Of a stretch of DNA of 42,657 nt, positions 2,029 to 3,057 are shown one piece after another; positions within the stretch are counted from its first letter, which is position 1; each line of letters starts with the position of its first letter. The DNA comes from Escherichia phage Flotzy: the sequence record PP925827.1; one strand, given 5' to 3'. A program made the position numbers and the translations under genes. The notes under the pieces are model-generated. The model was given only the letters and a program-made list of their open reading frames with translations. It was not told the DNA's origin and ran no database searches.

Positions 2029-3057
2029 ATGAAAAATACTGTAATTATAAACAGTGTTGAGTTAGTCAACGCTGATAGCCTGCAATACATCGCAACTCTC
2101 CCTGATAACTCCATTGACCTGATAGTCACGGATCCGCCGTACTTCAAAGTGAAACCCAACGGCTGGGACAATCAATGGAAAGGGGATGAGGATTATCTTC
2201 GCTGGCTTGATATGTGCCTCGCACAATTCTGGCGAGTGCTAAAACCTGCCGGCAGTCTTTATCTTTTCTCCGGTCACCGCCTGGCGGCAGACATTGAGAT
2301 CATGATGCGTGAGCGGTTCAACATCCTGAACCACATCATCTGGGCTAAACCGTCGGGTCGCTGGAATGGCTGTAATAAAGAGAGCCTGCGCTCTTACTTC
2401 CCTGCAACAGAGCGCATCCTGTTCGCTGAGCATTACCAGGGGCCGTATAAACCAAAGAGCGACGGGTATGCTGAGAAGGGAAGCGAGCTGAAGCAGCATG
2501 TAATGACTCCCCTAATTTCTTATTTCCGGGATGCACGTGAAGCGCTTGGCATATCCTCAAAACAAATAGCCGATGCGACTGGAAAGAAGAACATGGTGTC
2601 TCACTGGTTCAGCGGTAGCCAGTGGCAATTACCGAATGAATCAGACTACCGGAAGCTTCAGTCCCTTTTCACGCAGGTAGCCAACGAAAAGCACCAGAAC
2701 GGCGAACTGGCAACACCACACCACCAGCTGGTGGCTATGTGGCATTCGTTAAATCGCAAGTATTCAGAGCTGCTCGAAGAGTACAAATCGCTTCGGCGGC
2801 ATTTCTCTGTTTCCGTATCCGTTCCTTATACCGACGTCTGGACACATAAATCCGTTCAGTTTTACCCAGGCAAACACCCATGCGAAAAACCCGCTGACAT
2901 GTTGCGGCAGATCATCAATGCCAGCAGTAAGCCTGGTGATGTGGTGGCTGATTTCTTTATGGGGTCCGGTTCGACCGTGAAAGTCGCGCTGGAACTTGGC
3001 CGCCAGGCTATTGGTGTTGAACTCGAAGAGGAAAGGTTTAATCAGACGTTGGGGTAA
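2029..3057 (+). CDS. DNA methyltransferase, beta-class amino-MTase (N6-adenine or N4-cytosine)
   Basis: DPPY catalytic motif (LIVTDPPYF) near N-terminus and AdoMet-binding FxGxG (DFFMGSGST) near C-terminus. Confidence 0.8.
   Translation: MKNTVIINSVELVNADSLQYIATLPDNSIDLIVTDPPYFKVKPNGWDNQWKGDEDYLRWLDMCLAQFWRVLKPAGSLYLFSGHRLAADIEIMMRERFNILNHIIWAKPSGRWNGCNKESLRSYFPATERILFAEHYQGPYKPKSDGYAEKGSELKQHVMTPLISYFRDAREALGISSKQIADATGKKNMVSHWFSGSQWQLPNESDYRKLQSLFTQVANEKHQNGELATPHHQLVAMWHSLNRKYSELLEEYKSLRRHFSVSVSVPYTDVWTHKSVQFYPGKHPCEKPADMLRQIINASSKPGDVVADFFMGSGSTVKVALELGRQAIGVELEEERFNQTLG

Follow-up and report, generated by a model that had tools for sequence, protein, structure and literature searches.

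The 42,657-nucleotide (nt) sequence record PP925827.1 of Escherichia phage Flotzy, here called the window, encodes at positions 2029-3057 what is, by its sequence, an intact orphan adenine methyltransferase of the already characterised M.EcoGII family, and an ordinary member of that family. The gene is preceded by a conserved structured leader RNA that is listed in no RNA database, and this leader is the new element. We consider it probable that gene and leader together form a functional cassette that is off in the lysogen, is expressed late in dependence on the antiterminator Q, methylates adenines broadly as an anti-restriction measure, and is controlled through the leader. The two elements are as follows.

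1892..2028, + strand: structured 5' leader RNA of the methylase, about 115 nt, three helices (covariance model, covariation)
2029..3057, + strand: orphan beta-class N6-adenine DNA methyltransferase of the M.EcoGII family, ATG start, 342 amino acids (aa)

An earlier note on this DNA had read the open reading frame (ORF) at 2029-3057 as a beta-class amino-methyltransferase with DPPY before FxGxG, and Pfam and the motifs bear this out. DPPY is located at aa 35-38 (nt 2131-2142) and FMGSG, the FxGxG motif, at aa 310-314 (nt 2956-2970), with about 270 residues between them; the catalytic motif is thus N-terminal to the S-adenosylmethionine (SAM)-binding motif, which is the beta-class order. The protein matches Pfam N6_N4_Mtase (PF01555; E 4.5e-44; 151.5 bits, cut-off 26.7). 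A weak HTH_3 match (Pfam; aa 167-197) fits the modelled helix-turn-helix bundle of M.EcoGII (PMC11551740). Among solved structures, the nearest ones all belong to the beta class (9c3u/8urk, 4e-24; M.RsrI, 1.8e-21; M.MboIIA; CcrM). The MT-A70-type rRNA methyltransferase of a Shiga toxin (Stx) phage (M.EcoPA8orf6770P; Gong et al.; PMC10810198) was ruled out as the identity of the gene, since DPPY and PF01555 were found here and not DPPW and MT-A70.

The assignment to the M.EcoGII family is based on 269 of the 342 residues being identical to M.EcoGII, with two gaps (about 79% end to end; 78.9% over 341 aligned residues); the M.EcoGII sequence was taken, machine-read and with a few letters possibly wrong, from Table S1 of the SUPREM study (PMC11551740). 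Identity is 79.5% within the target-recognition region (aa 160-237) and 80.6% within the catalytic core, residue 179 is Q as in M.EcoGII, and the identity to Anc291 and Anc289, two reconstructed ancestors listed with M.EcoGII in the same study, is 84-86%. The enzyme of phage 1720a-02, which the M.EcoGII paper names as the carrier of a very similar enzyme (PMC5778455), is 78% identical to the window protein. M.EcoGII methylates A in any context in double-stranded DNA, single-stranded DNA and RNA, with up to 99% of dA modified in vitro; many restriction enzymes are blocked by the modification, and the gene is deleterious if constitutively expressed and is not expressed in the lysogen (PMC5778455). 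We infer by homology that the window enzyme likewise lacks sequence specificity. The earlier note had missed the 79% identity, from which one gene could probably give broad protection alone.

The family is well populated. Full-length matches at E <= 1e-60 were obtained by tblastn in 92 records of phage genomes, the best named phage being Eeyore (97%); further matches comprise SfV, cdtI, mEp460, phiP27, many Stx2a/Stx2c phages, and Hafnia, Providencia, Morganella, Serratia and Yersinia phages, and distant ones are phiKO2 (61%) and Aeromonas and Vibrio phages (51-53%). The homologous proteins include SfV orf48, cdtI orf56, phiP27 L24, those of Stx2a/Stx2c phages, mEp460 and 1720a-02, phiKO2 gp52, P840 ORF62 and VP58.5 ORF53/54 (51-87%); ORF62 of Yersinia phage P840 is 61.6% identical. 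The ratio of nonsynonymous to synonymous substitution rates (dN/dS) is 0.04-0.125 overall and 0.055-0.125 against the nearest relatives, which indicates a functional gene under strong purifying selection. No frameshifts or internal stops were found in the window gene, and all conserved motifs are intact.

The methylase is an orphan, as the earlier note had stated. No restriction-endonuclease-like gene flanks it, its neighbours being Q, a DUF968 gene and the genes for holin, lysozyme and Rz/Rz1, and there is thus no adjacent cognate endonuclease as in a Type II restriction-modification system. The DUF968/HNH-like protein encoded 1 kb upstream (PHROG 96) was considered as a hidden restriction partner and ruled out: its gene is located upstream of Q in relatives too, the annotations of phiKO2, VP58.5 and the Aeromonas phage show none close to the methylase, and no PADLOC system match was obtained for the protein.

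The leader attracted attention through its conservation. Some 140 nt ahead of the ATG remain conserved in relatives whose protein has just 51-61% identity (alignments A1 and A3), and relative to cdtI the leader is 87% identical when the gene is 76% identical with synonymous sites saturated. The minimum-free-energy z-score is -3.47. Three helices are formed, P1 (1907-1918/1925-1936), P2 (1941-1946/1958-1963) and P3 (1970-1982/1991-2005), with a tentative alternative helix P0 (1902-1906/1972-1976) and two conserved single-stranded blocks, AAAUGGGC on the 5' side and GAGCCUAUCA on the 3' side. RNAalifold on a plain MAFFT alignment had returned only P0 and two further pairs, with the halves of P1 misaligned; this was mended by a covariance model, R1, which was built from 46 diverse leaders with the three helices drawn by eye. 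R1 has a single match in the window (1892-2035, 135.8 bits) and matches in 82 of 100 sources, including loci missed by a sequence profile and Aeromonas phages in which the leader is located 130 nt further upstream. The sequence profile itself found exactly one leader copy in 171 of 217 loci; in the examples listed, about 17 nt separate the end of the match from the methylase start.

The helices are supported by covariation in two sets of loci. Set A5 comprised phage and IMG/VR loci and overlapped the seed of the model: 85% of cells were paired (74% in shuffled alignments), 21 of 31 pairs had changed on both sides (P1, 10/12; P2, 4/6; P3, 7/13), and the covariation score was 0.307, compared with 0.123 for shuffled alignments and at most 0.106 for slid partners. 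Set A6, with one genome per Enterobacterales species and loci outside the model, gave 85.4% paired cells (78.6% shuffled), 22 of 31 pairs changed on both sides, and a score of 0.209 (0.089 shuffled; at most 0.079 for slid partners); strong leader matches were at the same position in 62 of its 79 loci. Both alignments were fitted to R1, which biases the counts towards the model; the control with slid partners speaks against an artefact. G-U pairs are frequent on the + strand, which points to an RNA of the same sense as the gene.

The leader is tied exclusively to methylase genes of the M.EcoGII family. A scan of IMG/VR with the conserved leader-block pattern returned 81 matches, of which 75 had a methylase start at a fixed distance (exactly 23 nt from motif to ATG in 73, and 36 nt in two); of the remainder, five were chance matches rejected by R1 and one was a true leader, on the Stx-phage-like contig L307 (2138-2458), where the leader is intact and the methylase is internally deleted to its last ~60 codons. 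Another contig, L351, carries two copies of leader plus methylase. For the most distant homologues (Xenorhabdus, some Aeromonas and the phiKO2-distant clades), no leader was detected upstream even with filters off.

No Rfam 15 family was found for the leader or the whole window at gathering thresholds. The sub-threshold matches at E up to 1, Trp_leader/Leu_leader on the terminator shape of the first hairpin and P26 on the minus strand, all fall below gathering and were rejected as due to terminator shape or chance. The leader resembles riboswitches, leaders and phage RNAs in Rfam 15 (IsrK, C4, DicF) in its size, covarying helices, conserved junction nucleotides and fixed position in the 5' untranslated region, but differs from the cis-regulatory RNAs there in lacking a family match even at E = 1. 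No tRNA or tmRNA was found in the 220-nt gap before the methylase. In the literature searched, no published description of the leader was found, and a search with the literal leader sequence returned only an unrelated paper. The enterohaemorrhagic E. coli prophage small RNAs AgvB, AsxR and Pas were rejected as candidates for the leader; the word 'methyltransferase' is absent from the AgvB/AsxR and Pas papers.

As for its role, the leader is probably a cis-regulator that exerts post-transcriptional control over a toxic enzyme. Several features together favour control at this level. Outer P3 contains a C·A mismatch that is invariant. UGGGC, in the conserved 5' block, is able to pair with GCCCA (P0) and would so close a three-way junction with P1 and P2; this pairing is mutually exclusive with outer P3. 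The methylase start codon lacks a good Shine-Dalgarno sequence and is located at a fixed spacing from the leader structure. In Aeromonas phage PhAER-1 (L090), a Mu Com-type zinc-ribbon ORF (2362-2550; Pfam PF10122, 34.5 bits, cut-off 22.9) stands between the leader (2230-2372) and the methylase, whose start codon it overlaps. Com of phage Mu is a translational activator of the toxic DNA-modification gene mom. P0 shows a coordinated change to GUGGC/GCCAC in three divergent sequences (L210, L090 and L166) after manual re-registering; it is otherwise invariant, and no double change is recorded in the model alignment. A bistable switch did not emerge from energies, as forcing P0 against outer P3 gave inconsistent results (difference, mean 1.7, sd 4.4 kcal/mol), and the switch stays a hypothesis. 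We offer only tentatively, as a possibility with the odds against it, that the leader is an undescribed cis-regulatory RNA class dedicated to the M.EcoGII family, in which a switch gates translation: GCCCA (1972-1976) would toggle between UGGGC (1902-1906) and GAGCC (2000-2004) in response to a ligand (SAM or S-adenosylhomocysteine), a protein or self-methylation, the last being conceivable because M.EcoGII methylates RNA.

The comparison with mom/com extends to biology. In Mu, too, a toxic late DNA-adenine modification that is thought to protect against restriction is controlled post-transcriptionally. However, Mom is not a SAM methyltransferase and makes another adduct, there is no com-like gene in the window, and the two systems have no sequence relationship.

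The gene and its leader are placed in the late transcript between a late terminator and the lysis genes, and ORFs, Pfam matches and a hairpin scan agree with the earlier note on these surroundings. The following features define the region.

1-990: DUF968 protein, upstream of Q
991..1695, + strand: late-gene antiterminator Q (Pfam Phage_antiter_Q, PF06323, E 1.2e-40), which defines the start of the late operon
1788..1816, + strand: intrinsic-terminator-like hairpin (1788-1809) with T run, the first after Q and a candidate tR' (scan)
1869..1893, + strand: second terminator-like hairpin (1869-1886), immediately 5' of the leader (scan)
3086..3113, + strand: third terminator-like hairpin (3086-3105), closing the methylase cassette before the holin gene (scan)
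3146-3400, + strand: P21-type holin (Pfam Phage_holin_2_1, E 1.5e-17)
3403-3939, + strand: lysozyme-family endolysin (Pfam Phage_lysozyme, E 1.4e-24)
3918-4448, + strand: Rz (ORF); the lysis cassette spans 3146..4448
4201-4347, + strand: Rz1 (ORF), embedded in Rz

The first hairpin has an 8-pair stem with five G-C pairs followed by TTTTTATGGCT; the second consists of GCCTCCAGATCCGGAGGC plus TTTCTG and has an equivalent 5' of the leader in all seven other phages of alignment A1; the third has the 8-pair stem GAGGTCGCGATAGCGGCCTT plus TTTTATTACC, and its counterparts in SfV and phiKO2 are annotated as terminators (alignment A2). By megablast, about 1884-3127 is common at ~96% identity to 17 E. 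coli prophages and phage Eeyore, with differing flanks; the matches start at query 268-300 (window ~1867-1899) and end at query 1528 (window 3127). The methylase unit, a discrete mosaic module, is thus a moron-like cassette with hairpins at both borders.

The slot is identical in every annotated relative fetched, namely Eeyore, cdtI, SfV, phiP27, Stx2a phage WGPS2, 1720a-02, phiKO2, VP58.5, and Providencia, Serratia, Hafnia and Morganella phages: it comes downstream of the late promoter/terminator and immediately ahead of holin and endolysin. It follows Q in lambdoid phages, and Q precedes the methylase in Eeyore, SfV, cdtI and the Providencia, Hafnia, Morganella and Serratia phages as it does here; in Stx phages the methylase precedes tRNA genes and stx, and in the telomere phage phiKO2 the late promoter and both flanking terminators are annotated around it. 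The methylase loci of the SfV, cdtI, phiP27, Stx and phiKO2 type share this slot, most of them with the same leader RNA. They differ from the window in two respects: the Stx toxin genes replace the holin gene after the methylase, and most of these relatives keep, between Q and the leader, an intact small ORF (64 aa, winged helix; phrog_331; weak TrmB/MarR/DprA_WH matches), which is annotated in SfV (L004, 2157-2351), cdtI, phiP27, Stx2a, Providencia, Hafnia and Morganella phages. Window positions 1836-1868 look like a 3' remnant of this ORF (its last 30-50 nt). With only the 3' end kept, a recombination junction appears, from the sequence, to lie inside the phrog_331 ORF.

The window resembles a complete, circularly permuted temperate-phage genome. 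Its far end contains integrase, a CI-like repressor, CII, a replication gene, two other methylases and an antirepressor, and phage Eeyore has the same gene order (large methylase - Ant - DUF968 - Q - methylase - holin) running across the window's end junction. A pR' candidate, TTGCAA-17-GATATT at about 1726-1754, was picked by eye (8 of 12 consensus matches; unproven); a late transcript from it to the first terminator (1720-1816) would be only ~55 nt long and recalls the short pR'-tR' RNAs of other lambdoid phages. Downstream of the lysis cassette (4562-6066, + strand), a Ser/Thr protein kinase, which matches Pfam Pkinase and the PADLOC models mad6, PD-T4-6 and Stk2, is followed by a PP2C phosphatase; the pair is possibly a prophage-encoded exclusion or defence module.

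On the reading that we prefer, the terminators would stop transcription in the lysogen, so that the enzyme, toxic when expressed, would stay off; the position of the gene behind Q-dependent terminators is consistent with such silence, and a 99% homologue of M.EcoGI in ST131 was predicted inactive from reverse transcription PCR (PMC4659465). After induction, Q-modified RNA polymerase would read through and the enzyme would be made alongside the lysis and virion proteins. It would methylate adenines with little or no sequence preference, by homology, and the replicated progeny genomes would be heavily modified with N6-methyladenine (m6A) shortly before packaging; in the next host, the DNA could then evade many restriction systems of Types I, II and III. 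The leader RNA would add post-transcriptional control over the amount or timing of translation. Anti-restriction self-methylation, the function proposed for the type enzyme (PMC5778455), is by analogy the most reasonable one here. The methylase is likely to be accessory in nature, because Yersinia phage P840 still lyses and lysogenises with a transposon inserted in its homologue (PMC10612081).

M.EcoGII and M.EcoGI, which reside in prophages of E. coli O104:H4 C227-11 (Murray et al. 2018, PMC5778455), are alike in beta-class order, in size (349 aa compared with 342 aa here), in being prophage-borne and in being orphans. The window enzyme differs from M.EcoGII in 21% of residues, and it lacks the last eight residues of its closest relatives. 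Other adenine methylases with little or no specificity are M.HaeV (BA; Drozdz et al.), M.CsaII (AB) and M.EcoGIX (PMC5778455, PMC4659465); M.EcoGIX is plasmid-encoded, and M.HaeV and M.CsaII, distinct in sequence from each other, are earlier and less relaxed examples (PMC5778455).

Several points weigh against the preferred reading. The lack of specificity is extrapolated over 21% divergence, and few substitutions in target-recognition regions can alter specificity. A GAA-to-TAA change at 3055-3057 ends the protein at codon 343, and it is short by the last eight residues relative to the closest relatives; all nine relatives checked are longer, eight close ones having 350 aa and ending in EIRALAGE or close variants and the ninth having 354 aa. 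Activity of the clipped 342-aa protein is nevertheless expected to be retained, because the alignments to solved structures stop at aa 335-339 and the lost tail falls outside the region that they cover. No sigma-70 promoter was found by a consensus scan of 1400-4600, and the late promoter is thus deduced from Q and the terminators; nor is there an obvious Shine-Dalgarno sequence before the methylase ATG. Finally, DNA rich in m6A would be more open to attack by Type IV enzymes that depend on m6A, and the net benefit would vary with the host.

Three other explanations were weighed. That the methylase is mainly a regulator, acting through phage or host DNA or RNA on late expression, the lysis-lysogeny decision, induction frequency or host physiology, is unlikely, though it has the dedicated structured leader and the Mu Com-like ORF in Aeromonas phages in its favour, both of which point to careful dosage control. 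M.EcoGII does methylate rA in RNA and DNA:RNA hybrids (PMC5778455), but about 90 times more slowly on RNA than on DNA (V0 0.12 vs 11.12; PMC11551740, Table S3). Another Stx-phage methylase, of the MT-A70 type with DPPW, methylates 16S rRNA and raises spontaneous induction (PMC10810198); this PA8 enzyme, however, belongs to another family and requires a partner subunit, so that it offers an analogy only. An effect on induction would moreover have to act in the lysogen, where the gene is expected to be silent, and the P840 insertion mutant retains both lysis and lysogeny.

A sequence-specific orphan methylase, the kind of enzyme that the earlier note had assumed, would have regained or altered its specificity in diverging from M.EcoGII and would protect against only one or a few restriction systems; we regard this as improbable. 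Most beta-class enzymes, among them M.RsrI, M.MboIIA and CcrM, are sequence specific, and a fifth of the residues differ from M.EcoGII, yet these differences spare the target-recognition region no less than the catalytic core, and M.EcoGI, M.EcoGII and the Nanopore-assayed Anc291 and SUPREM are reported to be non-specific across a wider divergence (PMC5778455, PMC11551740). The two further methylases kept in the genome would be partly redundant if every adenine were modified by this one; they are early-region genes, however, and one is a C5 enzyme, so that they are not redundant in timing or base. Least probable, and quite unlikely, is that this copy is an inactive or decaying passenger whose C-terminus was clipped by a nonsense mutation. 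The stop at codon 343 would fit such decay, as would losses elsewhere in the family, where L307 keeps the leader with a gene remnant and the VP58.5 gene is split in two; against it stand the intact motifs, the position of the lost tail outside the known fold, the low dN/dS against the nearest relatives and the uninterrupted reading frame. An inactive pseudogene, which the earlier note had named as a refuting outcome, is thus unlikely from the dN/dS range, though the premature stop removes the last eight residues.

Two further methyltransferases are encoded in the genome, as the earlier note had noticed and Pfam confirms.

38618..39952, + strand: second methyltransferase, with a Dam-type N6-adenine domain at aa 19-199 of 444 (Pfam Dam, PF05869, E 2e-43)
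39891..41882, + strand: third methyltransferase, C5-cytosine type, 663-aa ORF (Pfam DNA_methylase, PF00145, E 2.1e-20, in three stretches)

The Dam-domain protein is covered at aa 3-443 by PHROG 111 (DNA methyltransferase), and no Pfam match was obtained for its C-terminal ~245 aa; the C5-methylase protein also matches PHROG 23072/116. The Dam-domain ORF overlaps the start of the unusually long C5-methylase ORF, for which an internal true start is possible; at the same position, Eeyore carries a large methylase followed by Ant. These two methyltransferases belong to the early-right region, whereas the one at 2029-3057 is part of the late operon, so that their timing differs. The claim of three different chemistries has to be reduced to two, as N6-adenine is represented twice and C5-cytosine once.

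Epigenetic control of a GATC-rich site at 26743, which had also been suggested, is not supported. GATC sites are located at 26746, 26764 and 26777, with a minus-strand ORF of 120 aa (26313-26675, phrog_25729) on one side and the tail-fibre gene at 26802 on the other; two of them are part of a perfect 10-bp inverted repeat (AGCGATCAAT/ATTGATCGCT) just upstream of the tail-fibre gene, and 26740-26790 looks like an operator or promoter region. With 215 GATC in 42.7 kb, however, three within ~35 bp are expected about once per genome by chance (Poisson estimate), and the cluster was ruled out as statistically special at this GATC density. The genome shows no depletion of GATC (215 observed, 165 expected), which is uninformative on restriction pressure. 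Host Dam already acts on GATC, and the phage Dam-like enzyme probably does so as well; methylation of the site needs no help from the enzyme at 2029-3057.

For the gene, little changes: the methylase is one more member of a well-populated family in its canonical place, and M.EcoGII is already a commercial reagent. The case confirms that, across Enterobacterales, Vibrio and Aeromonas, the family resides at the head of the late operon of lambdoid and telomere phages. The three-methylase repertoire can be reread, in that an M.EcoGII-like enzyme alone could mask most adenine-containing restriction sites, timed just before packaging. The leader suggests an overlooked, dedicated control device, which might explain how phages safely express a toxic, non-specific methylase, and it could serve as a compact regulatory part for M.EcoGII-based tools.

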